This document shows, piece by piece, positions 25,639-58,446 of a stretch of DNA of 64,000 nucleotides. A program made the translations under genes and the position numbers. The notes beneath the pieces are model-generated. The model saw nothing but the letters and a program-made list of their open reading frames with translations. It ran no database searches and was not told the origin of the DNA. Position 1 is the first letter of the stretch; the number at the start of each line of letters is the position of its first letter. Origin of the DNA: Giardia intestinalis (lineage: Eukaryota); assembly GCA_000002435.2 (NCBI GenBank), contig CM018792.1. One strand, 5' to 3'.

Positions 25639-28600
25639 TCAGAGCGAGCACCTGGCTGCTAGGTCGTAAACGGCCTCCATGACAGCATCGTTTTGGGGAA
25701 CCCCCTTCATCAATCCGGTGGCAGATGACCTTAGGGCAATGATGAGATTGGCTAGCTCATTAGTGTCTTCATTGGCCAAAAGCGTGAAGCGAATCGTGTA
25801 TCCATAAACCTCCAGCTCGTCAAGGAGGACTGCTCGGAGCTCTGCAAGGGGCTCTAGGTCTAAGGCTAGAGCACCAACATCAATGACGTTGGCCATTATT
25901 TCTAAAAGACCGTGGGGAAGGACAGGGATGGCTTCTGTCGGAAGCATAGTCGATTCCAATACAACGTTAGAGGCAGAAATCCCGCTCTGGTACTCCTTGA
26001 AGTACGCTGATAACCCGGCTACACTCTGTGTAAGAGATGGATGGAATATGACTACCCTGGAAATCTCGGCGGGTGTCAGATCTCTAAGCTCAAAGAGTGC
26101 AAAGCTGTACCGCACAAAACTCGACCAATCGTGGTACTTGGCCATCACCGTTGCAGCCTGCCTAACCTTCACCGGTAAAGAGACCAGCTCTTCGTTAATT
26201 GAGCGACGCCTGTCCTTGAACGACTGGATTGCCAAGCCTGCTTCCTTCGATCTGTAGAAGATTTGGAGGACGCAATCTGCTAAGGTTGCACTTGTCTTGA
26301 CTAGCTGGACCAGAACAAATTCGTGAAGGCTCTTTGCATTGTGTTCTAGAAGGCCAAAAGACACAGGAGTTCCCTGGCCATCTGTGTCTATAGATATTTT
26401 ATAGATGCTACACATTTGGCTAACCAGGCTGCAGATAACGTTGAAGAGATCATACAAACATGGATGAAGAGAGTTGAGCCAAGAAGGGATGTCATTATAT
26501 GTCGAAATTGACAACAGATCAATGTTCGTTTCTCTAGACACCAATGCCGTTTGCAAATAAACACAGAGCGAATCGAGTGATTGAGCCATCGATAAGACCT
26601 CAAAAAGCCGTTCCTGCGTTAATTTAAACTCATCTGACATACTGTTTGAAAGAGGGTCAAGAACAGACCTTACGTTCTTCAGAATACCGTGTGCTATGGG
26701 AAGGTGACTGGTTGTTGTCAGGGTCACGCCGCTCAAGATAGATTCGAAGCCATTCAAGCATGCTTCGCGGAGTTTGGTAAAGCCGGAATTGAATTGTCCA
26801 TCCGCTTTACAAACTGACGAGTATATCTTCCCTATACTTTGCTGCAGCTGCTGACAAACCAGTACCTCATTGTACTCCGACACAAAGTTAGAGTACTCGT
26901 GGAAGGTGAGCAGATAGTAATCAGCTTCAAGAAGGGTCGGGGATTCGTTCCCACGACCGGTGTAAACGTAGAAGAACTTTATAAGGCCAGACATAGCATA
27001 GAGAGCTTCCAAATACGTTCGAATCTTCATTTTCAGATCGGCCGTAACAAGGCTTTTGACACCCCATAGCCCGGTCTCTTTGAGAAATGTAATGAATAGT
27101 ATGAGATCCTCGATTTTTTGTATGCACGCTTTGAAGTACAACTTACAGAGTGTCTTGTGTCTTGCTATTTCCTTCCTGTCGATAGATGAACCAGGCCCTG
27201 AAGAGAGGGTTCCAGAAACCATGAATGCCCTATCACTACTGGTGTGTTCGCGTGCACACCAGATGGGGTCTTCTATATTATTGATAATAGAACGGTCAGT
27301 TATGTGTATAAGAAGCCTCTCCAGATCTGCTGGGACGAGTGTTTGGAACAAGAGGTTGAAAAGAGCATCTCCGCTGCAATATGCACTGTAGGATGCATGG
27401 AGGAGATCGTAGGGCGTGAGCTTCGAGCCGCCAGTTGGGTCTGTGTGCTTTAGGCGCTTTTCTAGGTATTCTCGTCTCGCTCCGTCACCAAGCTTACTAC
27501 ACGAGCCACCATTATGTGAGGTAAAAAGTATATCCATGTTGACGTTCCCAGTCAATGACCTGTCGAGGGGTTCAACTGTGGCACCTTCAGGGGTCTGCCC
27601 AATGGCCTCAATGTAATTACTGAGAGAGCGTAGATAACCCTGGTTTGTTAGGAGAAGAATGCTGGTAAGGTGGACTGTCTTGATGAGCCGCAGCTTGCGA
27701 TGGATGGCTCGCCGAGATGCGAATCCGTAGGAACTGATGGATCCTGCGCCTTGTGGAAATGAAAAATTGCGACCAGTAAAGCGCTCTGAGCCATACGGCT
27801 TGAGCTGCACAACGGCTTGCGAGTCATAAATATTATCAATATTTCTGCAAGTCATATCGCTCCTGCTCATTCCTTGGGACTTTAGAACGGATGCCACAGG
27901 CACACGAGTGAGCATAAGGTCATCAAATGCTTTCCCGGTGAGTCCAAGCCTGTTTGTAAAGGCCATATTTTTCCTCTGTGAAGCGTGGACGGTAAGTAAG
28001 TTTGGTAATGATCCGTAATAGAGCACAGTATACCGCTTGAGAAGTTCGCTCCTGATGCTGTGTGCCATCCGTGCTTTAGTTGATCTAAGTCCGTGTAACA
28101 CGGAAGTTACCTTATGCATTAGGCTAGGATCAATGGGGGTGTTGAAAAGGGATTCAACAAATTGGGGCAATTCATCCCTGTACTGCAGGAAGTAGTCTCC
28201 CGGCTTGTTATAAATGTAAACATGAGAGCTTGTCCCTGGAGAACCATATGCCAGGGCCAAGGCTTGTGGAGAGAGATCTGAAATTCCAGACAACACTCTC
28301 GTGCACAACACCCGGCTTCCTGTCACTACGTATCCTACTTTGCTATTTAAGAGGGGGATATCTAGGCTTGGGCGTCTAGAGTAGAAGTCGGCAAGAGGGA
28401 AGTTTTCGACAGAATAGTTGAACATATCGATAACTAAATCTTTAAGCGCCTCTGACTTGAATCTTCTACTGTGCTTCGTCTGCTTAGAGAAGAGCTTGTC
28501 GGAGACAGGGATATGGGATATCATCATTGTACCTGAGTGCATATGAGCGTCGTCGAGGCCGGGGCCTTCAACGGGCATCTCAGATACTCGTCCTTCTTTG

Positions 28601-30798
28601 CGCTGAACTAAAGGGTTGAGCAGGATATCAGCCACAATCACATTTGTGTGATGATTGTAATAAAGAAGGGAATATGTGACCGAGCCCTCTTGTGGACAAT
28701 TATCAATCAAGCGAAGATTCTTGCTCTCTGATAGGGCTATAACTGAATATAGAAGAATGACGGAGTTCTTATCTATAACGTTACAATCTGACATCGTTAT
28801 ATAAGCGCGTTCATCTTCATAGTCTATGTGTGGGATTGTTTCTGTGGCACAGGAAACGTACCTAGTTCCGGGGAAAAGAGTAGATAGCTCGTCTGCCCGA
28901 ATAATTGCCTGTGATGAGAACACCATTGAGGACGTATCGCACACTCTCAATCCAACAGAATCAGGAGGCCTGTCAATTAAGCCATAGAAGCAGAGTCTGT
29001 CGTAAGCCTCCTTCGATAGTTCACCAGCGATAGGCTGTTCTTTATCGGCCCTGCTTTTGCTGGCAAACAGAGACTGCTTAATGTCACCTTTGGCAAGGCT
29101 CTCTGGCCGGTAACTTGCTCCATAATATTTAACGTTAGAGAGAAACCTTCGACCATACCTAGTCAACGCATTTATAACCGGAATTCTCTTCTTGAGCAGA
29201 ACAATTCTGTCTTCATAGATAATCAATACTTGCCCGTTGATAGCCGTGGAAGTTGTTTCCAAGTCGGTAACCCTGATGCGGAGAACTGGATCCAAGGTAA
29301 GAAAGTTAGAGACCCAGGCATCATTGGGTATTTCTGGAAAGTAGACTCTAGCATTGTTTTTATACTCTTTATAGATCCCGCCTTGGTCTAGCTCTGATTG
29401 ATGCAGCGACCTAAATTGCTCGCCTTGTGGATCATATAGCTGTACGCCATCGACATTAGTCAACTCCAGTGGGTTGAGCAGGTTGTTGCGACGAAGCTGT
29501 TCGTGTTCTTCAGCCCATCTTCCCAGCCGCCTCTTGCCCTCGATTTGTTGGGGCTTCAGTCCGATGCTTCTTTGAAGATGCGTGCGCTTAGGAGGCTTCA
29601 TGAGCTTTAGAAGCTCCTTCTCACCGCCGGTCTTGGTCAGGACATGTCCTGCCTCCTTCATTTGAAGAAGCACCTGGCGCTTTAGTGCAATGGGATACGC
29701 AAGCCTGTCAACCTCCGTATAGCCAGAAAAGAACTCGCGCATCTGTTCCAGCAGAGAGTGCGCTGTTTTTCGACCTCCTAAAGATCTTGTGGGGAAGGGC
29801 TCGTCAACCAGTTCAAGAGTGCAGGAAGAGTAAGGAACATTGTATGCCCGTATCCCCAGCTTATTGCTGCCCAAGAGGCTGTTTCGCCCAACAGTCATAC
29901 TGATTGCTGAATTTGTTTGCGAAATAGGACTGGCCCTGGTTGGCATTCCCGTTAGCATCCCTTTACAAAACTGTGCCACTGCCACCTTTGTCCGCTTGAT
30001 AATTCCTCTCTGTGGAGCCATGGGATCAGCCTTATGAAAGGATCCGAGCCAACTACTTGCTTGGAGCCTGAGTGACTTGCGCTCTTTGACACTGACCGCA
30101 GACATGGGGGCCCGCTTGGAAATCTCAAAGTCCAGCTGCTCATCAATCCTCAGTGTGACCCTCAGAATGCGCCCAAGGCTGGTGCCAATAAGCAAAGTTA
30201 CTCGTAATGCTTTAGAGCTCCTGGATGCATGCGGAGGATCGGGCAGTATGCCTGCTCCAGCGGTTTCGGCCGCCGTTACAAATTCTGTGGGATAGAGATT
30301 CAAATAATTACATAATCTGCTACGGACGAGACACAGGCGGTCCCGTCTAAAGTCCTTTTGAAGGTCGCTAAAGCAGAGAAGAAACCCATCTGTCGTGATA
30401 GCCACAGCCGTCTGAGGAAGGTCGGCCATGATTCCAGGAAAGACTGACTCAAAGGTAAACACAAAGGGATTGCTGGGGTAAGCGGTTGACGGTACAGCGT
30501 CCGGTCCTAGCAAAAATTCATTGTTATTACCGTTGTGAACCTGGTTGGCCAGCAAAGGATCACCGAGAGCCTCATCTGCGGGGCTGAAGGGTGATGTTTC
30601 CAGAATAAGAAGGCGCTGTGGCGTTGCATCTATCGAACTATAGAGGATAGTCCTGTATCTAGAGGCTATGGAAATACAAAGAGTTGATCTGTCAATGGAC
30701 GTGCGGCACTGGTCCATTGTGAGATTGAGCGTCTCCATGTATGACAGCACTAACTGCGGCGGCTCATATAGGTCTCTTTCGCGGGTCCTAATGCTCAT
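25639..30798 (-). CDS. Very large hypothetical protein (1719 aa): N-terminal beta-rich region, C-terminal helical region
   Basis: Intact ATG ORF, divergent from the giant kinase gene across only 36 bp. I see no catalytic motif. The composition suggests beta-propeller plus alpha-solenoid (scaffold, coat or nucleoporin-like), but this is unassigned. Confidence 0.65.
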   Translation of the reverse strand: MSIRTRERDLYEPPQLVLSYMETLNLTMDQCRTSIDRSTLCISIASRYRTILYSSIDATPQRLLILETSPFSPADEALGDPLLANQVHNGNNNEFLLGPDAVPSTAYPSNPFVFTFESVFPGIMADLPQTAVAITTDGFLLCFSDLQKDFRRDRLCLVRSRLCNYLNLYPTEFVTAAETAGAGILPDPPHASRSSKALRVTLLIGTSLGRILRVTLRIDEQLDFEISKRAPMSAVSVKERKSLRLQASSWLGSFHKADPMAPQRGIIKRTKVAVAQFCKGMLTGMPTRASPISQTNSAISMTVGRNSLLGSNKLGIRAYNVPYSSCTLELVDEPFPTRSLGGRKTAHSLLEQMREFFSGYTEVDRLAYPIALKRQVLLQMKEAGHVLTKTGGEKELLKLMKPPKRTHLQRSIGLKPQQIEGKRRLGRWAEEHEQLRRNNLLNPLELTNVDGVQLYDPQGEQFRSLHQSELDQGGIYKEYKNNARVYFPEIPNDAWVSNFLTLDPVLRIRVTDLETTSTAINGQVLIIYEDRIVLLKKRIPVINALTRYGRRFLSNVKYYGASYRPESLAKGDIKQSLFASKSRADKEQPIAGELSKEAYDRLCFYGLIDRPPDSVGLRVCDTSSMVFSSQAIIRADELSTLFPGTRYVSCATETIPHIDYEDERAYITMSDCNVIDKNSVILLYSVIALSESKNLRLIDNCPQEGSVTYSLLYYNHHTNVIVADILLNPLVQRKEGRVSEMPVEGPGLDDAHMHSGTMMISHIPVSDKLFSKQTKHSRRFKSEALKDLVIDMFNYSVENFPLADFYSRRPSLDIPLLNSKVGYVVTGSRVLCTRVLSGISDLSPQALALAYGSPGTSSHVYIYNKPGDYFLQYRDELPQFVESLFNTPIDPSLMHKVTSVLHGLRSTKARMAHSIRSELLKRYTVLYYGSLPNLLTVHASQRKNMAFTNRLGLTGKAFDDLMLTRVPVASVLKSQGMSRSDMTCRNIDNIYDSQAVVQLKPYGSERFTGRNFSFPQGAGSISSYGFASRRAIHRKLRLIKTVHLTSILLLTNQGYLRSLSNYIEAIGQTPEGATVEPLDRSLTGNVNMDILFTSHNGGSCSKLGDGARREYLEKRLKHTDPTGGSKLTPYDLLHASYSAYCSGDALFNLLFQTLVPADLERLLIHITDRSIINNIEDPIWCAREHTSSDRAFMVSGTLSSGPGSSIDRKEIARHKTLCKLYFKACIQKIEDLILFITFLKETGLWGVKSLVTADLKMKIRTYLEALYAMSGLIKFFYVYTGRGNESPTLLEADYYLLTFHEYSNFVSEYNEVLVCQQLQQSIGKIYSSVCKADGQFNSGFTKLREACLNGFESILSGVTLTTTSHLPIAHGILKNVRSVLDPLSNSMSDEFKLTQERLFEVLSMAQSLDSLCVYLQTALVSRETNIDLLSISTYNDIPSWLNSLHPCLYDLFNVICSLVSQMCSIYKISIDTDGQGTPVSFGLLEHNAKSLHEFVLVQLVKTSATLADCVLQIFYRSKEAGLAIQSFKDRRRSINEELVSLPVKVRQAATVMAKYHDWSSFVRYSFALFELRDLTPAEISRVVIFHPSLTQSVAGLSAYFKEYQSGISASNVVLESTMLPTEAIPVLPHGLLEIMANVIDVGALALDLEPLAELRAVLLDELEVYGYTIRFTLLANEDTNELANLIIALRSSATGLMKGVPQNDAVMEAVYDLAARCSL

Positions 30799-30834: not shown

Positions 30835-33800
30835 ATGGACAACAAAAAATTAAATAAAAATCCCATGCCAAGTGGAGCATTTTCTTTCTCACAGAAAAGC
30901 GAAATCAACGAGCACGAATATCCACAAGATAAGATAACTCATTACATTTTTGGGCAGTGCATAGGGAGAGGGTCCTTTGGGTCTGTTTATTATTGCCTCC
31001 ACCGCGAATCGCGGAATGAATTTGCAGCCAAAATTATGTCTAAACGGTATCTGTCTAAGAGGTTCTTCATCAGAGAGTTCAATACCCAGGGTTCAGAGCC
31101 TTTATCAGGCTCAGACGACGCGGGGCAGGCAAGGGCTGGTGCCTCTAACCAGGACACCATCCTCTCTTATTTGGACCTTGCATATCAAGAGATAGAGGTT
31201 ATGAAAACCTTTCGCCACCCATGCTTGCTCAGACTCTACGAGGTCATCCAGTCGACTGAGCTGGATAAGCTTCTCATGATTATGGACCTTGCTGAGGGAC
31301 CTATTTCATCTGTGGCGCCTAACGCGTCTCACGTGAATAGTAACGTAGTAGGAATGCTACGATGTATTTACAACTCTACCGACCTTGACAACTTGCTAGA
31401 GTATTCCTCTCTCTGCTGCACTCCAATGTCTCTTTCATTTCTCCGGAAGGCAATCCTCCACATCACTCTTGGTCTCTATGCTCTCCACTCCAAGGATTAT
31501 GTCCACGCAGACATAAAGGCCGCAAACGTTCTCCGTCTGGCCAACGGTAACTTTGTGTTGGGAGACTTCTCTCTCACTAACCACGTTAGCGTAACACGTA
31601 CCATGTCTACGGTTGTTTCTGCAGCATATGCCTCTCCTGACAACCGCGGGTTGACTAAGGAGAATGACGTTTGGGCTTTTGGGGTGACTCTATTCATGCT
31701 CCTCTTTGGCCGCCATCCTGCATCGCTTTGCCTGCATATCCTTGTCAGCAAGCTCCCGCCACCGGAGGATGGTGGCATAATTATTTCTCCTAATCCACTA
31801 AAGCGGCTAAATCATTGGAGTGACGTATTACGCGAGGCTCCCGACGCCCTCACCAACATCCTGAATGTCAACACGGCATCCCCACATGCAACCGTAATAC
31901 AGATTATTGTGGGGTGCTTGGAACTAGACTACAAAAAGCGTTTTACGGTTCCGATGATTTACGACCTAATTATAGGGGATCATATCAAGAATACGTGCTA
32001 CCGTGTTACAAATAAGTTCACATTGCGGCTAATGCTCAATTTCTACAAGATTCAATCCAGTATTATCTTGGGCTCTGGACTCCCCCCTCACCTAACCGAT
32101 CCATCCATTACATCTCGATTTAAGGTAGACATTTGGAGGAACGCCATGCAGCGCCATCAATTCTACAAAGCAGGAGAGGATCTTGAGCTAGATCTGTCTC
32201 TTCCCCTGACACAAATGATTCTAAAGAAAAATTACGTCACTTTCCTCACAGACATGGTCTCAACTATGGATCCATCTAACGAGCATTCTGCGAGTTTCCT
32301 GATAAGCCTTGCACTTATGGGAACAGACGGGGATCTTGACGTTTATTTCTACTCTAAGTTTATACGGTTGTTTCTCTGGGGTGTTTCCAGCAAGCGCACT
32401 ATGGATACGTACTGGAGCGATATAGCCTATCTCCTCTACAATAATATGAACTACAAACGGTTGCACACCTCGAGGACCCTCAAGGAACTGAACTTCCCGT
32501 CTATACATTCCACAGACTCTGAAGATTCTGAAGAGCAGCATGTCATGTTGCTAGGCAAACTGGAACAAGAGTTGGCCCCTGAAATATGTAATCTGGATAT
32601 GGGATGCAGCCCCCTCTTTGAATTTGAACAAAGAAATCACTATTTCGTAAAGGACATGTTTTGGAACTTTCCGCTCAACGCGAGTTTTGCACGCACACGC
32701 ATACTTTTGATGGATCAAGGACTGCGGCCTCCCCAGTTGGTTTTCTATGAGATGTGCATGCTTAAGCATGATCTTTCAAAGTCCCATGGACTCGCTACCT
32801 CCCTCTACGCGTCTAAGAGTGATAAAAAGGGAAACTCCAGTGACCCTCAGGCACGGTTCAGATCTGCCTGTGCATCAGTGGTGAAAAGACTAACAGCTAA
32901 CGATTCATCAGCAACTTCGTTTCTGACGGGTGCCAATTACGGCTCTAGTGCCTTGAACACGGAGGGTGGCAAAGACGCCGACGCCATGCACTTTGTCGAA
33001 GAGGATGCATATGGAATGAAGGGCTATGATGGCGGAAATTTGCTATCGTCAACTTTAGGAGTTATGAGCGGAACTGGAGAACCACATTGTCATGGCCCTG
33101 CTGCATCTGCAATTAAAGGCGTTCCCTCAACCCTGGGAGATGGGGCCTCCAGTGCCTCTGCCCTCGCTGAGGATCTCTTTGAAGAAGAGATAGACCTCGC
33201 CAAGCTATCTAGTCTTTTCTCTAAGCAGTATATTTCAGAGCAGGACATAGCCGGCACGGGACTATATGTAGATAACTTCTCCTTTGGCTCCGGGGAAAAG
33301 GCCAGCAAGAACAAGGTATGTGTTGTGGCAGGAGGTAAAGCAGATCCGAGTGCTACCGCTCCGTTCATGAAGGACCTGTTCAATCTCGACAGTAGAAAAG
33401 ATCAGAACAGCATGCTCGGACTAGGAAGCTTTTCGCTTAGTACCTTACAGCATAGAAAGGCGTCTCCGGCCAAAAAGAAGACTTTGCACGTGAATTCCGC
33501 GGGCCAACGGAAAGAGGGGACTAGTCAAGCTGATGCACATACCCCCTCAGATGCGACAGATAAGAAACAACTTCTGAGCGATAGTAGCTCTGATGACGGT
33601 GACATTGTGGCCGTCGCAGCATCTGACTCTGACGACATGGACCGAGCCTTTGGCCTGGAGGAGGAGGCCGCCAAAAAGTCAGGTACATCTAATGGTAGTG
33701 ATATTAGCGATGATGATTCTGATATTGAGTTTGTCGGGTCCAATTCTGATAATATGGACGCCGCGTTTGGCCTGATTAGCAGCTCCGATGAGTCGGATGT

Positions 33801-36800
33801 CCAGGACATTATGGATATGACTGACTCTTCTAGTGAAGGTGATGATTATAGTGATGGGTACAGTAGCGACGGTGATATAGTTGCTATAGGCTCCGATTCA
33901 GAAGAGATGGACGCGGCTTTTGGTCTAGAGAAAGAGCCAGTGAAGAGAGAGAGCAAACAGCTCTCTGCGCCGGTTTCCAAACCTCAACCGGAGGCACGCG
34001 GCTCCTTCGATTCTCTTATGGTTCCCGAAACCGTCTCAGGCGAAAAACGAATGGAAAAGCCAAAGCCCAAAATGACACTGATAGCTCAGAGCTTTGATGC
34101 ATTCGACGAGGCCCTAGAAGACAAGTACATGGAGAGTCTTCCAGATGATGAAAAGCAACTATACAGTGTTGGTGGGCCGTTGTCTTATCCCCTGATAGGA
34201 ACAGGTACTGTACTACCACCAAACGATGATGAAGGTATACAGGAGGTGCCCCTCAGGGCTCAAGGCGCTGAGAACACGTTCAGCTTCGGGAGCTTCGCGT
34301 CACTCCGAGACTCTGCGATGCAGCTTTTCTCCAAGCGACCACTATCAGATCAGCAGGCACAGGATGCACATTCAGATGCTATTGAAACTATTGGAGAGGA
34401 CTCCACCCTTATTCTAGAGCCGCTCGTCGGAGTTGATCGCCAAAAGGGGGGAACTTTGCATAATTCGTTTACCTCTGAGGGGCGTGCTGGCAACCATATA
34501 GACTCTGTCTCACTCAAAGATCCAACATATGAGCTCAAGGACAAGGACACAAGCCCGCTAACCTGTATGTCTGTCGGCAAGCTAGATATGGGTTTGGACA
34601 TAGATGATGAAGAATCAAACGTATTTTCTCAGCCCTTTCAGATGTTATCACTGACTGTTGACAAAAGTGTGAAAAGACTTGATGCCGTTTCAGTAATGGA
34701 CCCTTTGACCTCAGAAATCCATGACACTCAAGCAAGTAGCCAGGAAGCCTTTGCACTCGACATTAATCCGGAAGACAGTGAGAGCATAGACCGAGGAATC
34801 AACATTGGATTCGCACAAAATCTTCCGGAGGACGCTGGTGCTTTGACAAACCAGGATGACAACTTTGATTGTCTGCACTTATCCTTCCACAATGACAATA
34901 TAGAGTATCCTCACTCAGACTCTCATCTTTCATCCAGGGAGCATCATGATGATATAATAGCCAATGCAAATATTAGTAACAGCTCTGGAGAGTATGATCA
35001 GTCATTGAGAGTTGGACATGTTGCACACATGGCAATCAGCCAGGATTCCGATGAAAAGGTGAATGCCTACCTCAAAGATAGTGAGATGCACATTCCTGAG
35101 GAACACATGGCTCTCCTTATGACCAGGACTGTCATTCTGTTGATATATTCTACGTGGGCTGTGCTTCAGCGGTTTGGCCACAGGTATTCCAAAAGCATGT
35201 CACTAGCAGATGCATACTCCAAATTTCATATCCTGGTCGATCAAGTTCTCAGTGAAGGTACTCATCTGTATGGTAAGTGGAGAGAGTATAAAGATAAAGC
35301 GCAAGCAAGTAAGTCGACGAATGAGGAAGTTGATCCGCGTGTTAGGATGCTTTTAAAGTACGGCACTGATAAAGCCCATCCCTATGCCTTGACAAGAACT
35401 TTGGCCACCAACATTTTGTCTGTTGGAAGAGCATACATTCAAGCTCTCTGTGAAGAGCTGGGCACGCCCACTTCTTTTGATGATGACTGGGTATCATGGC
35501 CACTGTTAGTCAACGACTGTACACAATTGCATGAGGTAGACCTCGATAGCTTCTTGCGTTTCACACCAGATAACTACAAGACGTACCTGCAAAACAAGCT
35601 AACGGGCTCTGTGCGCAACAGTTCATTCTCCCAACTTACTGATGCTTCCGCCTTTGATCAGCAAAACTCTAGCTTCAGTGGCTCGATGGAGTTCTTTGAT
35701 AACCCCATGCTGCCCTTAGAGAACAACACCCTTGCGTATGATGTGCACTTTGGCAAGAGCAGCGTTATGGCTACTCTCCCAAGCATAAGTTTCAGTAAGA
35801 ACCAGACAACAACTGGACTGCTAAGCAGAGGCCCTAGTGCTCTACCGCCAGGGCGAAACTCGGTGAGTGGATCTAGATCAGTGTCAACCAATTTATCAGT
35901 TCATGACAAACTAGTTTGCTCACTTTTACATCCCCAAGTTGTGACTGACCACAGTGTGATTTTTCAATCGCATTCCAACAATCTTAATAACAACGAATTA
36001 ATGAAAAGGAAATGCGCTTCATGCAGCGATTTCTCACTCATGGCTGACGCAGCTCATTCTACTGAAGCCTTATTACACGCGTCCTCTGTGCCGTTGACAA
36101 AACTAAATGGTTTTCAAGACTTACTTGATCCTCCATCAGATGATCTTGCTTCAGATTCTAACGTCAACGCTATTGAGCCCCATGTCTCTCAAGTTAATCG
36201 AGTTTCCCTTGACGCTGATGAGTCATATGCTAAGACTGCCGAGGGAAGCTTTATTGAGCAGAACGTTCCTGCCACCATTGATTATTGTACAACTACATCT
36301 GCTGACTCTTCGCTACCCCACTCCTTGAGGAGTCGTAGCACCTTTTGCGGCTTATCGTTATGCACAGAAAGATTAAGACTGATCGAAAACTCTGCCAACT
36401 TCGATGTACCGCTCACCTTTCAATCACGGTCTGTATCCCTGCGGCACAAGGCAAGAGCTCCTCATAAGATGTCTAGATTGAGCTTGCACACCCATCAAAG
36501 ACATCACTACGGTATTAGGCCCATCGTAGAGATTGTAAAGACTCCTTCCATTATGGATAGCTCTATCAGTACCTCTCCTACAAATGTCAGTCTTACAGAA
36601 GAGCAGAACGTGGGCAAAGAAAAGGGGGACGATGGCCTCTTTGAACTCTCTGCCCAGAGCTCATCGCTGGAAACAGATAATTTGAAGATAGAGCTTATTA
36701 CAAATGACGTTGTTGATTTGATTACTCCGTTAAAGGTATCCTCTGGTCAAGTTCGCTCTTCTTCGCAAGAAAAGTGTACCCGTGATAGCCCATTGGAAAA

Positions 36801-39000
36801 TTCTGATAGCAACAGGTTAGCATTGCGGCCAGTATCTCAGAATCTTCACGCTTCTAACGCTCACTCCACCACTGACAACATCCCTTTGCTATCCCTCTCG
36901 GATAAGCAACAGCGTTTGGAGAATCTGATCTCTCATTCCATACATCCATTCCTCGTATCGAGCTGGAAGTTGACGAAGCAAAGACTCACACTAAATGCAT
37001 CTGGTCTGAATCCCAATAAAGGCTGGGTTATTCTGAGCATTATTGACGTAGCCCACTTCCTGCAGGGGATCGCGAAGATTATAAACGTGAGATCCACTAC
37101 GTCGTCATACGGAACTGATGCGCCTCAGGTGCGGCTTTATTGCAATGAGAACATTGTCTATGAGCCTCGCTCGCTTCAGAATACCGTCGCACACAGCAGG
37201 CTTCCAAAGACAATAAAGGAGACAGTCAAGCTGCGGCAAAACGTCCACGATCTATGGGTTAATATTGGTCTAGATGCAGCTGAGCGATCTCCCCTTGTGG
37301 GTATTCGCCACAGCACGAAAGAGCGACAAGGGTATATCATCCGGCGAAGTACTCAACACCACGATGATGAGATTAATAAATATGAAGGAGATCTGGATGT
37401 GACGAGAGCCCAAGTTTGTTCTAGAAAGGCCAATGGAAAGGTTGAGCTTAGGCTGAAGTCCCTCTTCGATCTCTTAGAAATTAAAAATAAGGATGTCTTT
37501 AATGCTGACAACGCCCCAGCCACCATGAATGTGGGTGGCAAGGAGATCTATGGTAACGACTGCTCTGACTTTAAGCAAAGCGGCCACAGCTCATCGGATG
37601 ACGGATATAACATTCCTTCAGGGTATAAGATCTTGAACACCTGCATGCCCGCAATGGGGGACATGGGTAAGCCTGTGTCAATATACCGTTTTTCTCGCAA
37701 CGCTCCCACAGGCGATTACTTCACTTTTCTGTATGCCAATTCTGTTGAAGGCAATAGAGCCGACTTCAAAGATAGTTTGGTCCCAGGAGACCAAAACTAT
37801 CTTGCCAATTGGTTAATTGAGACGGACAAGATAGAGCGGCCACAGGCCCAGATGGATGAGGTCATTGTACAGACCCAGGACTCTGTCAAGATAAAGCCAC
37901 TTCAGATTGATAGTGACGCAAAGGTTATGCCTAGCATACTTTCTACGGCGGCAATCTCCATCAACTCGCAAGCAAACTTGAAACGAGTGGGGTCCAGCAA
38001 CATATCTCATTCTGTGCTTCGCAGAAAGTCTGTCTCTGCGGCTAACATGTTTGCACTATATCCTCGGTCAGCCATTGGGCACATGTCAGAACCTTCTCCA
38101 CAGGCTCCAGTGGAGCAACCATTCGAGAATGTGTCTACTCCCTCTGTAAAACTTGATGATTATCAAATTGCGGCTGTCAATGAGGAGAATAGCATCGAAG
38201 GACTAAGTACTTTCCAAATAGAGCCTGTAACTAGCAACATGGATATGTCGTCAGAGCAGCAGACTGGGACTAACGACTTGAACGGCTATGACTTTCAGCT
38301 TGCCAGCTCAGAGATGGACAGTAAGGCGTTGACAGATGTTCATTGTTTCACCATCAGTACTCTTGTAAGTCAACCGTCGCTACCTGCACCACTCATTACT
38401 GAACAGGATAACAACAGCGAACCGGAGCATCCCAACGATGCAGAGAAAAGGCCTCTAGCAATGAAGAGCTGCACCACAGGCACCAGACCCTTGTTTCCGA
38501 CAATTACACGTCAAGACTATGAAGCAATGGAAAATGCACAGAGGCAGGCCTGTACAGAGGGCTTTGCTGATACAGGTGGCAATAGCACTCTTCAGGCTCT
38601 CTGTATAGATACGGGTGTCTACGTCAATCGAATGAGCTTTGAAGAACATGTGTTCATGCCGCACATCTTCCTCGAGATTCTCCTCGATCTGGTTGTCAAT
38701 GCAAGGCAATACTCTAAGCCCTCAATTGTCCGTGCTGCCCTATTTAACTGCCAAGAGTCGCTGTACCTTGTGGTCAATGATTGTGGAATAGGTCTTCCCA
38801 AGCAGTGCTGGCAGCATGCTTTCTTCCACCAGCAGGAGCTGGCAGATATCTCACAGTGCCTTGGGTCGGGTCTTGCCCGTGCCATCCTCATTACTCGTGC
38901 CTACGGCGGTATTATTAACGTAAGCTCGTGCAAGAACGGCGGAACTCGCCTCATACTCAAGATACCTCTTCCCAAGGAGTCAACATTTATCGACGCTTGA
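30835..39000 (+). CDS. Giant (2721 aa) protein: N-terminal Ser/Thr protein-kinase domain (NEK-like, slightly degenerate) plus a long low-complexity middle plus a C-terminal histidine-kinase-type ATPase (HATPase_c/GHKL) domain
   Basis: Kinase motifs: Gly-loop IGRGSFGSVY, VAIK-like FAAKIM, HRD-like VHADIKAANVL, DFG-like VLGDFSL, APE-like ASPD (about nt 30940-31970). C-terminal domain (about nt 38640-38990): N-box FLEILLDLVVNARQYS, G1 VNDCGIGLP, F-box HAFFHQ, G2 GSGLARAILITRAYGG, G3 NGGTRLILKIPLP. Confidence 0.8.
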   Translation: MDNKKLNKNPMPSGAFSFSQKSEINEHEYPQDKITHYIFGQCIGRGSFGSVYYCLHRESRNEFAAKIMSKRYLSKRFFIREFNTQGSEPLSGSDDAGQARAGASNQDTILSYLDLAYQEIEVMKTFRHPCLLRLYEVIQSTELDKLLMIMDLAEGPISSVAPNASHVNSNVVGMLRCIYNSTDLDNLLEYSSLCCTPMSLSFLRKAILHITLGLYALHSKDYVHADIKAANVLRLANGNFVLGDFSLTNHVSVTRTMSTVVSAAYASPDNRGLTKENDVWAFGVTLFMLLFGRHPASLCLHILVSKLPPPEDGGIIISPNPLKRLNHWSDVLREAPDALTNILNVNTASPHATVIQIIVGCLELDYKKRFTVPMIYDLIIGDHIKNTCYRVTNKFTLRLMLNFYKIQSSIILGSGLPPHLTDPSITSRFKVDIWRNAMQRHQFYKAGEDLELDLSLPLTQMILKKNYVTFLTDMVSTMDPSNEHSASFLISLALMGTDGDLDVYFYSKFIRLFLWGVSSKRTMDTYWSDIAYLLYNNMNYKRLHTSRTLKELNFPSIHSTDSEDSEEQHVMLLGKLEQELAPEICNLDMGCSPLFEFEQRNHYFVKDMFWNFPLNASFARTRILLMDQGLRPPQLVFYEMCMLKHDLSKSHGLATSLYASKSDKKGNSSDPQARFRSACASVVKRLTANDSSATSFLTGANYGSSALNTEGGKDADAMHFVEEDAYGMKGYDGGNLLSSTLGVMSGTGEPHCHGPAASAIKGVPSTLGDGASSASALAEDLFEEEIDLAKLSSLFSKQYISEQDIAGTGLYVDNFSFGSGEKASKNKVCVVAGGKADPSATAPFMKDLFNLDSRKDQNSMLGLGSFSLSTLQHRKASPAKKKTLHVNSAGQRKEGTSQADAHTPSDATDKKQLLSDSSSDDGDIVAVAASDSDDMDRAFGLEEEAAKKSGTSNGSDISDDDSDIEFVGSNSDNMDAAFGLISSSDESDVQDIMDMTDSSSEGDDYSDGYSSDGDIVAIGSDSEEMDAAFGLEKEPVKRESKQLSAPVSKPQPEARGSFDSLMVPETVSGEKRMEKPKPKMTLIAQSFDAFDEALEDKYMESLPDDEKQLYSVGGPLSYPLIGTGTVLPPNDDEGIQEVPLRAQGAENTFSFGSFASLRDSAMQLFSKRPLSDQQAQDAHSDAIETIGEDSTLILEPLVGVDRQKGGTLHNSFTSEGRAGNHIDSVSLKDPTYELKDKDTSPLTCMSVGKLDMGLDIDDEESNVFSQPFQMLSLTVDKSVKRLDAVSVMDPLTSEIHDTQASSQEAFALDINPEDSESIDRGINIGFAQNLPEDAGALTNQDDNFDCLHLSFHNDNIEYPHSDSHLSSREHHDDIIANANISNSSGEYDQSLRVGHVAHMAISQDSDEKVNAYLKDSEMHIPEEHMALLMTRTVILLIYSTWAVLQRFGHRYSKSMSLADAYSKFHILVDQVLSEGTHLYGKWREYKDKAQASKSTNEEVDPRVRMLLKYGTDKAHPYALTRTLATNILSVGRAYIQALCEELGTPTSFDDDWVSWPLLVNDCTQLHEVDLDSFLRFTPDNYKTYLQNKLTGSVRNSSFSQLTDASAFDQQNSSFSGSMEFFDNPMLPLENNTLAYDVHFGKSSVMATLPSISFSKNQTTTGLLSRGPSALPPGRNSVSGSRSVSTNLSVHDKLVCSLLHPQVVTDHSVIFQSHSNNLNNNELMKRKCASCSDFSLMADAAHSTEALLHASSVPLTKLNGFQDLLDPPSDDLASDSNVNAIEPHVSQVNRVSLDADESYAKTAEGSFIEQNVPATIDYCTTTSADSSLPHSLRSRSTFCGLSLCTERLRLIENSANFDVPLTFQSRSVSLRHKARAPHKMSRLSLHTHQRHHYGIRPIVEIVKTPSIMDSSISTSPTNVSLTEEQNVGKEKGDDGLFELSAQSSSLETDNLKIELITNDVVDLITPLKVSSGQVRSSSQEKCTRDSPLENSDSNRLALRPVSQNLHASNAHSTTDNIPLLSLSDKQQRLENLISHSIHPFLVSSWKLTKQRLTLNASGLNPNKGWVILSIIDVAHFLQGIAKIINVRSTTSSYGTDAPQVRLYCNENIVYEPRSLQNTVAHSRLPKTIKETVKLRQNVHDLWVNIGLDAAERSPLVGIRHSTKERQGYIIRRSTQHHDDEINKYEGDLDVTRAQVCSRKANGKVELRLKSLFDLLEIKNKDVFNADNAPATMNVGGKEIYGNDCSDFKQSGHSSSDDGYNIPSGYKILNTCMPAMGDMGKPVSIYRFSRNAPTGDYFTFLYANSVEGNRADFKDSLVPGDQNYLANWLIETDKIERPQAQMDEVIVQTQDSVKIKPLQIDSDAKVMPSILSTAAISINSQANLKRVGSSNISHSVLRRKSVSAANMFALYPRSAIGHMSEPSPQAPVEQPFENVSTPSVKLDDYQIAAVNEENSIEGLSTFQIEPVTSNMDMSSEQQTGTNDLNGYDFQLASSEMDSKALTDVHCFTISTLVSQPSLPAPLITEQDNNSEPEHPNDAEKRPLAMKSCTTGTRPLFPTITRQDYEAMENAQRQACTEGFADTGGNSTLQALCIDTGVYVNRMSFEEHVFMPHIFLEILLDLVVNARQYSKPSIVRAALFNCQESLYLVVNDCGIGLPKQCWQHAFFHQQELADISQCLGSGLARAILITRAYGGIINVSSCKNGGTRLILKIPLPKESTFIDA
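33585..33940 (+). repeat. Three acidic coding repeats inside the giant kinase gene (consensus ..SDDGDIVA[VI][AG]SDS[DE][DE]MD[RA]AFGLE..)
   Basis: SSSDDGDIVAVAASDSDDMDRAFGLEEE, DDSDIEFVGSNSDNMDAAFGLISS and SDGDIVAIGSDSEEMDAAFGLEKE, spaced about 130 nt apart. Confidence 0.6.
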
Positions 39001-39080: not shown

Positions 39081-39677
39081 ATGAGAAGTAAATTGTTAAT
39101 GATAATTCTAGTTCCGGCGCCGCTTCTTCGTGGCTGGAGAATCCTGACCCTACAGGCCCAGCGCTGGCACAGAACAGTGATCTATCTGCTTCGCCCCCTT
39201 TACCTCATCAGGTATATCTCTCTTCTCATTCTAGGACTTATCTTCATCTTTCGCTACCTCTTGGTAATCAAGAACATGCTCCCAATATTCCAGTTTATTA
39301 CTTTTCTATTGACTGTCTGGACTGGAGAGTGCATGAAAGCCCGCTACTCTGGAATTTACGAGTTACGCCCTCTCCTTATAGACGAGCCCTGGAATAACCT
39401 CAATCAGACGTTTACTGATAAATATGTTTTCTACGAGGCAGACGTGTGGATTAAGCTTTTCACGTCCAACGTTCTGGCGATCATCATGAGCTTCACAGAA
39501 CTCGGAAAGAGAGGCCTTCGCCTTCTTCCATTTGTGTTTTCACTGATAGCTGATGTTCTTCTCCAGATACTGAGACCATATGGGAAGTTTCGAGCCATGG
39601 GCTACAACAAGGGCTTGTTGCACTGCATCATAGACAGCTGCCAATACATGAACAGGGCTCTCCGGAACCGACTTTAG
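39081..39677 (+). CDS. Hypothetical small membrane protein (198 aa, three to four predicted TM helices)
   Basis: ATG with an AT-rich stretch upstream (TATTTAAATCAAAGTCTAATTGTATTAG). Hydrophobic segments LLMIILVPAPLL, ISLLILGLIFIFRYLLVI, IFQFITFLLTVW and VLAIIMSF. No family recognised. Confidence 0.4.
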   Translation: MRSKLLMIILVPAPLLRGWRILTLQAQRWHRTVIYLLRPLYLIRYISLLILGLIFIFRYLLVIKNMLPIFQFITFLLTVWTGECMKARYSGIYELRPLLIDEPWNNLNQTFTDKYVFYEADVWIKLFTSNVLAIIMSFTELGKRGLRLLPFVFSLIADVLLQILRPYGKFRAMGYNKGLLHCIIDSCQYMNRALRNRL

Positions 39678-39680
39678 TCA

Positions 39681-42600
39681 CTAGACGTCATCTTCTGCTA
39701 CCACATATAAGCTATTGACCTTGATAATGTCACGGAATATTGCATCGTGGACAGCAGTTAACCGTGCCTTCAAACGCTCGTCCCCAATGACTTCCACCGC
39801 GATTATTAGCTGGTCGACAAGGTTTATTAGACGCCTGAACATCCTTACTATGTTCCCTTCGAATTGGCTCCGGTCTATGTCGAGGATCTCCTGAAATGTC
39901 TGACCTGCCGCCCATGAAAAAGCAATTACCGCTGTGGTGTCGTCCACGATGTGATCAACTGTTGTGCAGCGCAACTCTAACGTTGTGTCCTCTGTTGCAC
40001 AATCCTTTAGCAACATAGATACAATCTGTTTTAGCTTCGTCAACGCTTGAGACAGCTTCGGGTCCATCTGGAGTTGGTTACTCTTCGATGATCCCGATGC
40101 TCCAGTTCCCTCTCCGAGAAGGGAGGCCAAGACGCCAGCGAGGACTCGTGGAGTTAGGTCAGTGAATTGGGCCTCAAACAGACACTCAACGAGTATTACC
40201 TCATTTGCAGAGCTAACATGACATGCAACACGCCCCTTGTCTGTGAGAAGGTATGCAGCTTCGCTATCTGTGGCCCCAGGAATTTCTTCTATGAAGTGTT
40301 CACGGCGCAAGAAGTTTTTCAACTTTACCAGCTCTGAGCTCAGTATAAGGTCGTCGGCTTCTTGGATATATTGCTTAAATATCTGCTTTTTGGCATCTCG
40401 TCTCATACAATTGAGCATGAGAGAAAAAATCATACCCGATACCTCCAGCTGACCGGAGGCATCCTCATCATGTGGAGAGTTATCGATGTATTCCTTCACC
40501 ATTTGATAAACAATCAGCTGTTCTTCTTTTAATGCCTGCTCGTTGGTGTCTTCCATGCGCGTCGAAATCTTAGCATAAATTGCAGGAGAGCACACGGCAT
40601 TAAGCACTCTATGTAGAGTGGGCGCACTGTGTGCTGGTGATGAGAGTATACGCGTCAGAATCCCATATTCGTTGTCGCAAGTGATAGCATGTTCAACTAA
40701 CTTTATGTTACAGTCTAGATCGTTAACCTCTGATGTAACGTCGGCATAGGCCAACTCAGAAAGGTTAACGTGCGGCTCCATAAGATCAGCTAGAGTAGAG
40801 GGGAAGCTGTGAGATTCGTCTGATGGTATGAGAGAGGCTATCATTTGATAATAGAAAAACATTGCCTCGGACTTATCATCATACCTAGAAAGGCTTTCCG
40901 GTATGGTCTTTAATATCTTTCCAGAAGCCCTTCGGATTGCTCTCACCGGAACGCGAACAATTACACAAGCTGTTGCTTCTATTTCGCTCCAGAGATGTTC
41001 ATGCAGCTTTCCTTTCATCTGCTTCTTCTTAGACGATGCCCCACACTTGTCGATTGCTGTCAGGACACTGAGAAGGACGTCTCGAGGAGCAAGCATCTGA
41101 TAGGACGCCTTGTTTTCACGCACGAATGGCTGGAGAGGATCAATGAACGAGTACTCATAAAGATTTTGTGGGGTGATGGACTCTGAGGAGTCATTAGCGT
41201 AAATGAGGTCATTTATATCTGCATGTGACACTTTCTGCTTTTCGACTGGTTTGGAACCTACCTTTCGAAGTGGCCTCCTTTTTACAGGGGGTTGACTCTC
41301 GTCAGCAGATGCGTCTTGGGCATCAGCTGGGCTATCCTGCTTTTGCAAGGTCGACATATATTCTTGATAGTATGGCTTGTTAATTAGTGCAGCGTGGGCA
41401 AGCTCTTTATCAACTCCTCTCGAGCTAAGCGAAGAAGGGACGGTGTCGCTAAACGCAATTAAGTGTGTTTCTGAAGCATTAGTGTACTTCGCCGGGACGG
41501 AGCCGAGAGAACAGGGAACCAAACAATCCACAAAGCTGTCAGAGCCTAGTCTTGTAACTTTCAGGACTGGTACCCACCCCAGGTCCAACCCATCGGCATG
41601 CACATGAACTATTCGTCCGCGAACTAATAACTGCTTCATAGAGTCTTGGGACAACAAACGAGACCAATCCACATAGTAACTAGTCTTGAGTGCAAAGAGA
41701 TTAACATACTCAGTCAAGAGACCGTATAACCTTTGAGCATCCCAAGATGCTAGGTTTGCAAGTGACTGAAGCATATCTGGACCAAAGAATTGAGCGAGCT
41801 GCTCATACTCTCCGAAGGCTCTATGCAGGACATTAAGTATGCTTAGTAAAAGTCTGCCCAGTTGCGTTTTATCTACGGCATTGGCATTCTCTAGTGCAAG
41901 GATCTTGTCTATGCAGCGCGGCAACCTAAATAACTGCTGGAACTGCAAGAACGACCGCTTAATCACCTGCTCAGGAGAGGTATCTTCTATTTGCATCAAT
42001 TTAAGGACACTATTAAAAGAGAGTCTATATGCACTGTTTAGTGGTTCAGTGGTTCCTTGAATTACCTTTACAATGTTGTCACATTCGTCTGCTGTGCTGA
42101 ACATGCATATTGACATGCCCTGTTTGTCTATTCCTCGCCGGCCAGCGCGACCAGCCATCTGAACATACTCACCAGCAGTCACTAATCTGGAAGTCAATCC
42201 GTCGAACTTTTTAAATTCAGAAAAAATAATCGCACGAGCAGGAAGATTCAGGCCCATAGCGAATGTTTCGGTCGCATACAGAATCTTCACTAGCCCCTCA
42301 ACAAACAGTATTTCTATAATCTCCTTTGCCCAGGGAAGTAACCCTGAATGGTGGACTGCGATTCCTCGTCGTAACATGCCACGAAGAACGACAATAGGTC
42401 TTAAGTTGCGATCTTCTTCTGGAAGGCACTTGAGCGCTGCGTCAAATATATTATCTATAACACGTGTTTGTTCAGGAGTCACCAAGCTCTGTATAACGGG
42501 AGGCTGCGCTTGAGTGGCCTGCTGGTTATCCTGTGGAATCAATGCCTGGGGTTCTTCACCGTAAGTCCGCTGCAAGGGTGGCCGGGAGGTGGCTCTTTGC

Positions 42601-58186: not shown

Positions 58187-58192
58187 ATGTAC

Positions 58193-58207
58193 ACTTAGGT
58201 AGTAAAT
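58193..58207 (+). terminator. VSP-type extended polyadenylation signal ACTTAGGTAGTAAAT (contains AGTAAAT)
   Basis: It sits 7 nt after the VSP stop codon and matches the conserved VSP 3' element ACTYAGRTAGTRAAY as I remember it. Confidence 0.7.
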
Positions 58208-58446
58208 GCGTCGATGAATTCTGTTTGTAGGTCTGACTCGGAAGTTGCATGAATAACTCAATCTGGCTGTATTAGGAACAGGGACAAACCACAACTAATA
58301 GGTTAAAGATTTTCTTCTTCAGTTTTGAGCTCAATTCCAGGGTGGTCTCTGGATCTCTGAACTTGATACGCTGGCCCCCGGGTTTGACGACAGTACTACC
58401 TCCCGTCTCAAAAAGCATCACAAAGTGGTTTACAATCACCGATCAG

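Follow-up and report, generated by a model that had tools for sequence, protein, structure and literature searches.

Protein kinases of the CaMKK/SAK1/GRIK class activate AMPK. CaMKKs carry an insert between β3 and helix C of the catalytic domain, and directly after that domain they have a short autoinhibitory/calmodulin-binding segment. Sensor histidine kinases (HKs; e.g., HK853, WalK/YycG, PhoQ, and EnvZ) place a HisKA/DHp domain with the acceptor His beside a catalytic ATP-binding (CA, HATPase_c) domain. PDK/BCKDK, SpoIIAB-type anti-sigma kinases and plant phytochromes phosphorylate Ser/Thr after the loss of His phosphotransfer, and fungal group X hybrid HKs unite Ser/Thr-kinase-type and HK-type ATPase domains in one polypeptide (S/TKr + GAF + HisKA + HATPase_c + REC). 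The gene GL50803_96363 lies in a 64,000-nucleotide stretch of Giardia intestinalis DNA (contig CM018792.1, assembly GCA_000002435.2; the whole stretch is called the window below). It encodes a eukaryotic Ser/Thr kinase fused to a genuine HK-class ATP-binding domain, with Pfam Pkinase and HATPase_c matches in one open reading frame (ORF), as a model given only the letters and their translations (the sequence-only reading) had proposed. The protein is interpreted here as a CAMKK that carries the remains of a complete bacterial HK-like module and whose tail would act as a nucleotide-binding regulatory module, not in a phosphorelay; as a whole, this interpretation is given an even chance. Its statements on identity and evolution, taken jointly, are considered highly probable, and the regulatory mechanism is offered tentatively, at somewhat less than even.

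The gene is a single uninterrupted ORF of 2721 codons plus stop (8.2 kb), and it translates to exactly the sequence of XP_001709518.1 (‘Kinase, CAMKK’) of Giardia lamblia ATCC 50803 (WB), which bears out the assignment to a diplomonad. The true start is probably M11 (nt 30865) and not the first ATG at 30835, because the newer RefSeq model (2711 aa) starts there, as do the orthologues of assemblage B and G. muris, whose first Met aligns to residue 11. Full-length versions occur in many independent assemblies, with 2721 aa in assemblage A and 2724 aa in assemblage B (72-73% identity). The G. muris orthologue has 2177 aa, lies on a 2.8-Mb scaffold of a chromosome-scale assembly, and also contains HATPase_c. 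The whole ORF and the features of its N-terminal part are as follows.

30835..39000, + strand: whole ORF GL50803_96363 ‘Kinase, CAMKK’, translation equal to XP_001709518.1
30943..31974, + strand: CAMKK-type Ser/Thr kinase domain, aa 37-380 (Pfam Pkinase; CaMKK1/2 PDB matches; Manning et al., 2011)
30964-30987, + strand: G-loop GRGSFGSV
31030-31032, + strand: catalytic Lys66
31504-31527, + strand: catalytic loop HADIKAAN (D226, N231; non-RD)
31564-31572, + strand: DFS (D244-F-S246)
31630-31641, + strand: ASPD replacing APE

The N-terminus matches Pfam Pkinase with E 1.3e-27 (best stretch aa 115-375), and the eukaryotic protein kinase (ePK) core is complete, with GRGSFGSV, K66, D226, N231, and D244 all present. 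An insert of ~35 aa lies between β3 and helix C, the same place as in CaMKKs. When the kinase domain was compared with the PDB, the top four matches were CaMKK1/2 (E 1e-17 to 7e-16), followed by AMPK, SIK, and MARK, and NEK was absent among the best 60 matches. The Giardia kinome study classified the gene as Other/CAMKK, outside the expanded Giardia NEK family, and described it as a ‘primordial’ 1:1:1 orthologue, ‘Active (K,D,D present)’, with a ‘large insert within kinase domain’ (Manning et al., 2011; PMC3218828). The sequence-only reading had called the kinase NEK-like; this is rejected, given that the PDB ranking and the kinome classification both point to CAMKK. The GDF that it reported in place of DFG had been read one residue out of register, as the motif is L-G-D244-F-S246, or DFS (DFG with G→S).

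On these sequence features, the gene is Giardia’s single CAMKK-type kinase, with a domain that looks catalytically complete. It resembles the CaMKK/SAK1/GRIK class in having a catalytic domain nearest to CaMKK1/2 and all catalytic residues, and it is present as a single copy in Giardia. Unlike that class, the Giardia protein is non-RD (HAD), has DFS and SPD variants, is 2721 aa long, and bears an HK-derived module as its tail in place of the short autoinhibitory/calmodulin-binding one. The features of this tail are listed below.

38587..38979, + strand: HK-class CA (HATPase_c) domain, aa 2585-2715 (Pfam, PDB, NCBIfam, family model, and hhalign)
38674-38715, + strand: N-box, aa 2614-2627 (Asn2622)
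38779-38799, + strand: G1, aa 2649-2655 (D2649-x-G-x-G)
38821-38832, + strand: FFHQ, aa 2663-2666
38863-38910, + strand: G2, aa 2677-2692
38938-38973, + strand: G3, aa 2702-2713

Pfam HATPase_c matched aa 2614-2713. The whole protein scored 24.9 bits, narrowly missing the gathering score (26.4); the C-terminal 299 aa by themselves scored 28.8 bits and the G. muris orthologue 36.7 bits. The PDB profile matches of the CA domain were WalK, PhoQ, SrrB, and HK853, all bacterial sensor HKs, and the NCBIfam matches (RstB, EnvZ, PhoQ, and others) ran through the CA part of the models only. A hidden Markov model (HMM) of a bacterial family with 81 members, described below, scored 72-75 bits on the CA domain of all three Giardia orthologues (HMM positions 185-303), and hhalign of the Giardia CA domain gave a probability of 99.5% and E 3e-22. 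The tail is, by sequence, a genuine bacterial-style HK ATP-binding domain. The HATPase_c call was correct, borderline with Pfam (24.9-28.8 bits) yet reaching 72 bits with the family-specific model, and every box that had been quoted (N, G1, FFHQ, G2, and G3) is in its place.

Residues that bind Mg, adenine, and phosphate in CA domains are invariant (N2622, D2649, G2651, G2653, G2679, and L2680). Gln replaces the N-box Lys, nearly invariant in the bacterial family, in each of the three Giardia sequences (NARKY → NARQY), and in G. duodenalis the first G2 Gly is replaced by Cys and the lid Arg by His. The protein has no Pfam match to HisKA, HisKA_2/3, or His_kinase at E ≤ 10, and the three-orthologue alignment contains no conserved His within the 60 aa preceding the CA domain. 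The earlier failure to find an H-box next to the CA domain thus agrees with Pfam and NCBIfam, neither of which detects an adjoining H-box or HisKA.

The sensor HK cores (HK853, WalK/YycG, PhoQ, and EnvZ) share with the Giardia domain the N, G1, F-like, G2, and G3 boxes in normal order and spacing, and they give its best sequence and structure matches. Unlike them, Giardia lacks a HisKA/DHp domain beside the CA domain and a detectable acceptor His, has Gln for the N-box Lys, and has the domain fused to a eukaryotic protein kinase, with no receiver partner known. The protein falls outside the classical sensor-HK family, because it lacks the DHp/His feature. The suggestion of a ‘bacterial sensor kinase or PDK/BCKDK-type’ domain held in its first half only. 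The PDK/BCKDK-type reading is rejected: Pfam BCDHK_Adom3 had no match and HATPase_c_2 none above threshold, PDK/BCKDK were absent among the PDB sequence matches of the CA domain, where all matches were bacterial sensor HKs, and the PDK/BCKDK resemblance is one of fold alone, ranked below sensor HKs in structure matches. Similarly, of the proposal of an ATPase or PDK-like module outside a phosphorelay, the absence of a phosphorelay probably stands, and membership of the PDK/BCKDK sequence family does not. Among known architectures, the nearest are HK-derived kinases that abandoned His phosphotransfer and fungal group X hybrid HKs. The former have no specific sequence relationship to the Giardia domain and no fusion to an ePK domain. 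The latter are alike in combining both kinds of domain; they keep HisKA and REC, and their kinase domain is merely ‘kinase-related’, whereas the Giardia ePK looks catalytically complete and its HK part is without HisKA and REC.

Relatives of the tail occur in bacteria. A large set of metagenome proteins of ~300 aa has a CA domain at the C-terminus and an ‘LLDMHSxLNxLNV’ helix about 25 residues from the N-terminus. The family HMM was built from 81 of these ~300-aa bacterial proteins, and a scan of one genome per prokaryotic species confirmed 320 family loci. These are found in Spirochaetaceae, Opitutaceae and other Verrucomicrobiota, Kiritimatiellota, Gemmatimonadota, and Fidelibacterota, and also in Desulfobacterota, Bacteroidota, Planctomycetota, Thermosynechococcus, and Ectothiorhodospira. 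The family is stand-alone, cytoplasmic, and HK-like, with an invariant N-terminal helix H-S-x-x-N-x-x-N. Scans of the bacterial family found no named Pfam or NCBIfam model for its N-terminal domain, and Pfam PF06580 (His_kinase) had no match in the family. The H-x3-N-x2-N spacing recalls, we presume, the LytS-type His_kinase H-box. At the three family loci examined, the neighbours were unrelated or not conserved and no response regulator was adjacent. Some longer bacterial relatives have N-terminal REC or HPt-like regions, judged from source names and sequence reading alone.

The Giardia CA domain scored 72 bits with the family HMM against 25-29 bits with the generic HATPase_c model, and it shares the family signature MPxV..DV.RDL..NAR.Y ... 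G.GL.KA ... GTR..I.IP.P. The bacterial proteins are compact and free-standing or fused to REC/HPt-like regions; unlike them, the Giardia copy is fused to a CAMKK, split by huge inserts, and without the His-helix motif. A neighbour-joining tree of 118 CA columns with 40 bootstraps, a rough method, separated the family from generic HKs in 38/40 bootstraps, grouped all metamonads in 29/40, and grouped Giardia with a hexamitine sequence in 37/40. By these sequence comparisons, the Giardia CA domain belongs to this uncurated bacterial HK-like family. The most likely route would be a single capture of a bacterial gene, which was joined to the CAMKK before barthelonids and Fornicata diverged. The ancestral module would have had ~300 aa, with an N-terminal helical bundle, the first long helix of which started with the conserved His, followed by the CA/HATPase_c domain.

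The same fusion recurs in four other metamonad lineages, as was established by the search of other genomes that had been suggested along with the original claim. With the alignment of the C-terminal 695 aa as the query, exhaustive HMMER searching across 1.84 billion representatives returned 448 hits, which outside Giardia were all confined to the CA region. Word-indexed homologue searches with the full protein and with the CA alignment returned Giardia sequences only. The proteins outside Giardia that carry the fusion or its module are as follows.

Dysnectes brevis, 779 aa: Pkinase and HATPase_c (Pfam)
Barthelona sp. PAP020, 665 aa: Pkinase and HATPase_c (Pfam)
Barthelona sp. PCE KAL0230028.1, 662 aa, on a 2.17-Mb scaffold: Pkinase and HATPase_c (Pfam)
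P0170, 728 aa: HATPase_c, with a kinase domain read from motifs and not from Pfam
Aduncisulcus paluster, partial protein: carries the HK-like module

The Barthelona kinase domain is likewise nearest to CaMKK1/2. That of Dysnectes has mixed top matches, including CaMKK2, and has DFS as in Giardia, with a non-RD loop HGD (HAD in Giardia). The metamonad tail is a compact module of ~300 aa, composed of a His-bearing helical bundle and the CA domain, and in the compact relatives (Barthelona, about 660 aa) it directly follows the kinase domain. The family HMM covers the Barthelona tails end to end (positions 5-302, 182 bits) and those of Dysnectes, Aduncisulcus, and P0170 as two or three segments with inserts between them. 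Barthelona, Dysnectes, Aduncisulcus, and P0170 retain the His helix, and so, probably, does the hexamitine sequence (‘FHHAIILFN’), where the His-helix HMM is not significant (E 0.17) and the register looks right.

The hexamitine sequence is a Logan contig (SRR21617920, positions 2-1819) with 28 in-frame stops (15 TAA and 13 TAG) and a terminal TGA. Standard gene callers recorded just the last 118 aa, owing to the hexamitine diplomonad genetic code, in which TAA and TAG are sense codons. Under code 6, the contig gives 605 aa with a CA domain that scores 76 bits against Giardia. It contains the motif HDVHVYVGLQMVEQSPVIGVRH, which matches Giardia aa 2134-2165 (independent E 1.7e-4), an ‘ECGWVLQNS’ segment and, farther upstream, ‘IIYFHHAIILFNM’. 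The region just upstream of the aa 2134-2165 match fits positions 129-184 of the bacterial family HMM (independent E 0.006).

A Giardia-like contig (SRR14944320) contains the C-terminal end of the gene at the contig edge, with the ORF open to the edge, followed by a small ORF and an opposite-strand DSHCT/DEAD helicase with the same domains and orientation as the helicase in the window. The small intervening ORF matches TBCC. In the gene of this relative (positions 114-1172), an Ala/His/Asp-rich insertion of ~130 aa lies between the F-box region and G2, in the ATP-lid region. A metagenome scan with diplomonad patterns returned just two unrelated bacterial KdpD-like kinases.

Parts of the module other than the CA domain were sought in the long Giardia linker, the features of which are given here.

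33595..33927, + strand: three acidic repeats SD.DI(V/E)(A/F)(V/I)..SDS..MD(R/A)AFGL, aa 921-941, 961-980, and 1012-1031
35080..35184, + strand: conserved helical island, aa 1416-1450 (...IPEEHMALLMTRTVILLIYSTWAVLQRFGH), candidate His-helix remnant
36940..37350, + strand: putative pre-CA block, aa 2036-2172 (IHPFL...RL, NPNKGWVILS..DV, IINVRS, PQVRLYCNE..EPR, and HDLWVNIGLDAAERSPLVGIRH)
37276-37311, + strand: motif AAERSPLVGIRH, aa 2148-2159, invariant in three Giardia sequences
37675..37863, + strand: Giardia-specific block, aa 2281-2343 (VSIYRF.RN.PTGDYFTFLYA ... W..ET...E.P...MDEV)

The block at aa 2036-2172 probably corresponds, on sequence grounds, to the pre-CA part of the module. Comparison of aa 2020-2360 with the metamonad modules by hhalign gave E 1e-3 and a probability of 21%, and the motifs run in parallel: ‘IHPFL...RL’ of Giardia resembles ‘VLPVL..R..E...R’ of the module, and ‘NPNKGWVILS..DV...IINVRS...VRLYCNE’ resembles ‘P..W......D.....NS......I..N’. 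The hexamitine sequence bridges the two, as it matches both the bacterial HMM (129-184) and Giardia aa 2134-2165. The motif at aa 2148-2159 has counterparts in the hexamitine contig (VEQSPVIGVRH) and in Dysnectes (AAELCPV); it is superficially like the HisKA H-box (H-E-L-R-T-P-L), with Ala at the place of the His and a conserved His eight residues downstream of the Glu.

For the His helix, no match reached significance. The His-helix HMM had no match in the Giardia proteins. When the linker (aa 620-2030) was compared by hhalign with a profile of the metamonad N-terminal module, the top local match placed aa 1417-1473 on the His helix, with E 0.12, or 0.051 with a shorter query (non-significant, range 0.05-0.4). 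All registers obtained align the family His with the invariant Arg1431, and neither of the two family Asn residues is preserved. The island at aa 1416-1450 is regarded as a probable but unproven remnant of the His helix.

These probable remains lie within a linker that had been described as 2000 aa of low complexity. This is accurate for its Ser/Asp-rich, fast-evolving stretches (14% Ser over the linker) and fails for the conserved islands at aa 1416-1450, 2036-2172, and 2281-2343; the linker is not merely of low complexity, as it probably contains remains of the rest of the HK-like module (block 2036-2172 at least). In Giardia, the module would be spread over about 1300 aa, and the Ser/Asp-rich insertions that pulled it apart are put at >1500 aa. 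The three-orthologue alignment gave the following identities for assemblage A against assemblage B and for A against G. muris.

Kinase core, aa 37-380: 94% (A vs B), 62% (vs G. muris)
Ser/Asp-rich stretches: 62-63% (A vs B), 23-27%, heavily gapped (vs G. muris)
Island aa 1416-1450: 91% (A vs B), 34% (vs G. muris)
Block aa 2036-2172: 88% (A vs B), 53% (vs G. muris)
Block aa 2281-2343: 83% (A vs B), 37%, ungapped (vs G. muris)
CA domain, aa 2585-2715: 97% (A vs B), 63% (vs G. muris)

Constraint on the CA domain equals or exceeds that on the catalytic core of the kinase, and that on the putative pre-CA block is considered comparable. The block at aa 2281-2343 is predicted to be β-rich, with strands in a low-confidence AlphaFold2 model and invariant columns in the three-orthologue alignment, and no relative of it was found outside Giardia among the 1.84 billion representatives. 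The AlphaFold2 model of the Giardia C-terminal 695 aa, made with the three-orthologue alignment, had a predicted local distance difference test (pLDDT) score of 34.6. Pfam found no domain in aa 356-1455 and just sub-threshold noise (SPIDER and zf-RING_13) on linker pieces covering aa 356-2055. The acidic MDAAFGL repeats noticed earlier are present as three MD(A/R)AFGL copies at aa 935, 974, and 1025; tandem repetition was seen at the protein level only, and not at the DNA level. Weaker counterparts, ‘SDIVDL’ and ‘DSIVDI’, occur in G. muris, and ‘SSDLIDIGGDIAVSDSSDD’ occurs in Dysnectes. The repeat core I-V-x-[IVL] flanked by Ser/Asp presumably recalls SUMO-interaction or CK2-dependent motifs.

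As for function, the Giardia tail would no longer run a His-Asp phosphorelay. It may instead be an ATP/ADP-binding regulatory module, possibly dimerising, for the CAMKK catalytic domain to which it is attached; in the compact relatives, the module appears to occupy the position usual for kinase regulatory segments. In Barthelona and Carpediemonas-like organisms, where the His is kept, the module may still autophosphorylate. The target pathway is suggested by gene content: LKB1 (LKB) has been lost in Giardia (Manning et al., 2011; PMC3218828), and from this absence and by analogy with other eukaryotes the CAMKK is presumably the upstream activator, and the sole one, of AMPK-type kinases in Giardia.

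Several points weigh against this interpretation. The assignment of aa 1416-1450 to the His helix, and hence the H-to-R loss, depends on non-significant alignments (E 0.05-0.4). An invariant His, H1424, is found seven residues upstream of Arg1431, and a second, H2159, lies in the diplomonad-conserved ERSPLVGIRH motif, so that a relocated acceptor His (H1424 or H2159) is possible. Nucleotide binding and the regulatory role are read from motifs and conservation, and the finding that the CA domain is as constrained as the kinase core would also suit a domain that is still catalytic. The AlphaFold2 model of the Giardia C-terminus (pLDDT 34.6) is useless, and structural arguments come from a homologue about 28% identical. 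Finally, gene transfer is suggested by distribution and a rough neighbour-joining tree, which is not a rigorous phylogeny.

One alternative retains catalysis in another form, with the HK-fold tail still phosphorylating Ser/Thr in its own Ser-rich linker, in the CAMKK domain, or in a partner. The nucleotide-binding boxes, all kept and strongly constrained, and the 14% Ser of the linker would suit such an enzyme; it is nevertheless judged unlikely, given that the tail has no sequence relationship to PDK/BCKDK, that BCDHK_Adom3 and HATPase_c_2 are without a match above threshold, that the three Giardia sequences have Gln where the family has a nearly invariant N-box Lys, and that no substrate is known. 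A further proposal, to which we attach a similarly low probability, is that the protein is an ancient metamonad hybrid in which an HK core was hard-wired to an AMPK-activating CAMKK as an intramolecular ATP/signal-sensing switch without a response regulator; it would still function in Giardia, possibly through a relocated acceptor or by direct nucleotide sensing.

A cryptic His autokinase, with a diverged or relocated acceptor His (e.g., H1424 or H2159) and an unrecognised receiver, appears quite improbable. It draws on the His helix kept in Barthelona, Dysnectes, Aduncisulcus, P0170, and probably the hexamitine, on the invariance of both candidate His residues in three Giardia sequences, on the superficial likeness of ERSPLVGIRH to the H-box, and on the bacterial relatives fused to REC/HPt-like regions (by source names or sequence reading). 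Against it, no profile detects a HisKA-type domain, the family His aligns with Arg1431 in every register obtained, two surveys report no classical HKs in Giardia, and the candidate His residues are 450-1200 residues from the CA domain in G. duodenalis. More doubtful still is a pseudo-enzyme, in which the tail would be purely a structural, dimerisation, or scaffold element without functional nucleotide binding. The Giardia replacements (N-box Lys → Gln and, in G. duodenalis, first G2 Gly → Cys and lid Arg → His) could be read as erosion in this sense, as could the loss of the His helix and the ~130-aa insertion that the Giardia-like relative tolerates in its ATP-lid region, but the Mg-ATP contacts (N-box Asn, G1 Asp and glycines, and G2 GxGL) are invariant from Giardia to Barthelona to bacteria. 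An assembly or gene-model error joining two genes has a negligible probability, and a mis-assembly chimera is excluded, by the uninterrupted 8.2-kb ORF, the full-length gene in many independent assemblage A and B assemblies and on the 2.8-Mb G. muris scaffold, and the identical domain order in four other metamonad lineages.

The CAMKK gene is divergently arranged with a 1719-aa ORF (25639-30798, − strand) without a Pfam domain, the first ATGs of the two being 36 bp apart, or 66 bp if the CAMKK starts at M11. Directly downstream is a 198-aa ORF (39081-39677, + strand) without a Pfam match, followed by a DEAD/DSHCT (Mtr4/Ski2-like) helicase (39681-43766, − strand). Elsewhere in the window, a variant-specific surface protein (VSP) gene at 55547-58186 (+ strand; Pfam VSP, E 4e-139) is located in the only GC-rich, A-over-T-skewed part (GC 0.56-0.585). 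A 578-aa antisense ORF (56558-58294) that overlaps the VSP gene is probably spurious.

The bare observation of HATPase_c in this protein is not new, as the Pfam match has been on record since 2011: PF02518 HATPase_c (2e-06) is tabulated for GL50803_96363 and its GLP15 orthologue in Additional file 1 of the kinome study, the main text of which leaves the domain unmentioned and states that ‘Giardia lacks classical histidine kinases’ (Manning et al., 2011; PMC3218828). A later survey counted zero HKs in Giardia and Spironucleus (Kabbara et al., 2018; PMC6324907). Its filter required two of HisKA, HATPase_c, and REC, and GL50803_96363 was consequently not counted. CAMKK and Giardia both appear in a TOR/AMPK survey preprint of 2026, which is silent on the HATPase_c domain. 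In the searchable literature, the gene identifier was found nowhere beyond the 2011 kinome paper and the HATPase_c match is not discussed; the metamonad-wide fusion, the derivation from a complete bacterial module, and the erosion of the His helix in Giardia were likewise not found there. The architecture is as unusual as had been supposed, given that an organism reported to be without HKs has an HK-class domain joined to an ePK.

Giardia, repeatedly cited as lacking HKs and two-component signalling, thus keeps an HK-class ATP-binding domain under strong selection on its only CAMKK. The fusion is a dated example of a eukaryotic kinase capturing a bacterial signalling module, and it flags a bacterial HK-like family with an N-terminal His-bearing domain for which Pfam and NCBIfam have no model. 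The compact 300-aa versions of the module in Barthelona and Dysnectes, together with the bacterial family, offer a tractable route to biochemistry. For the parasite, the domain would provide a predicted ATP-binding pocket that is parasite-specific and non-human, on a signalling kinase that is probably essential.

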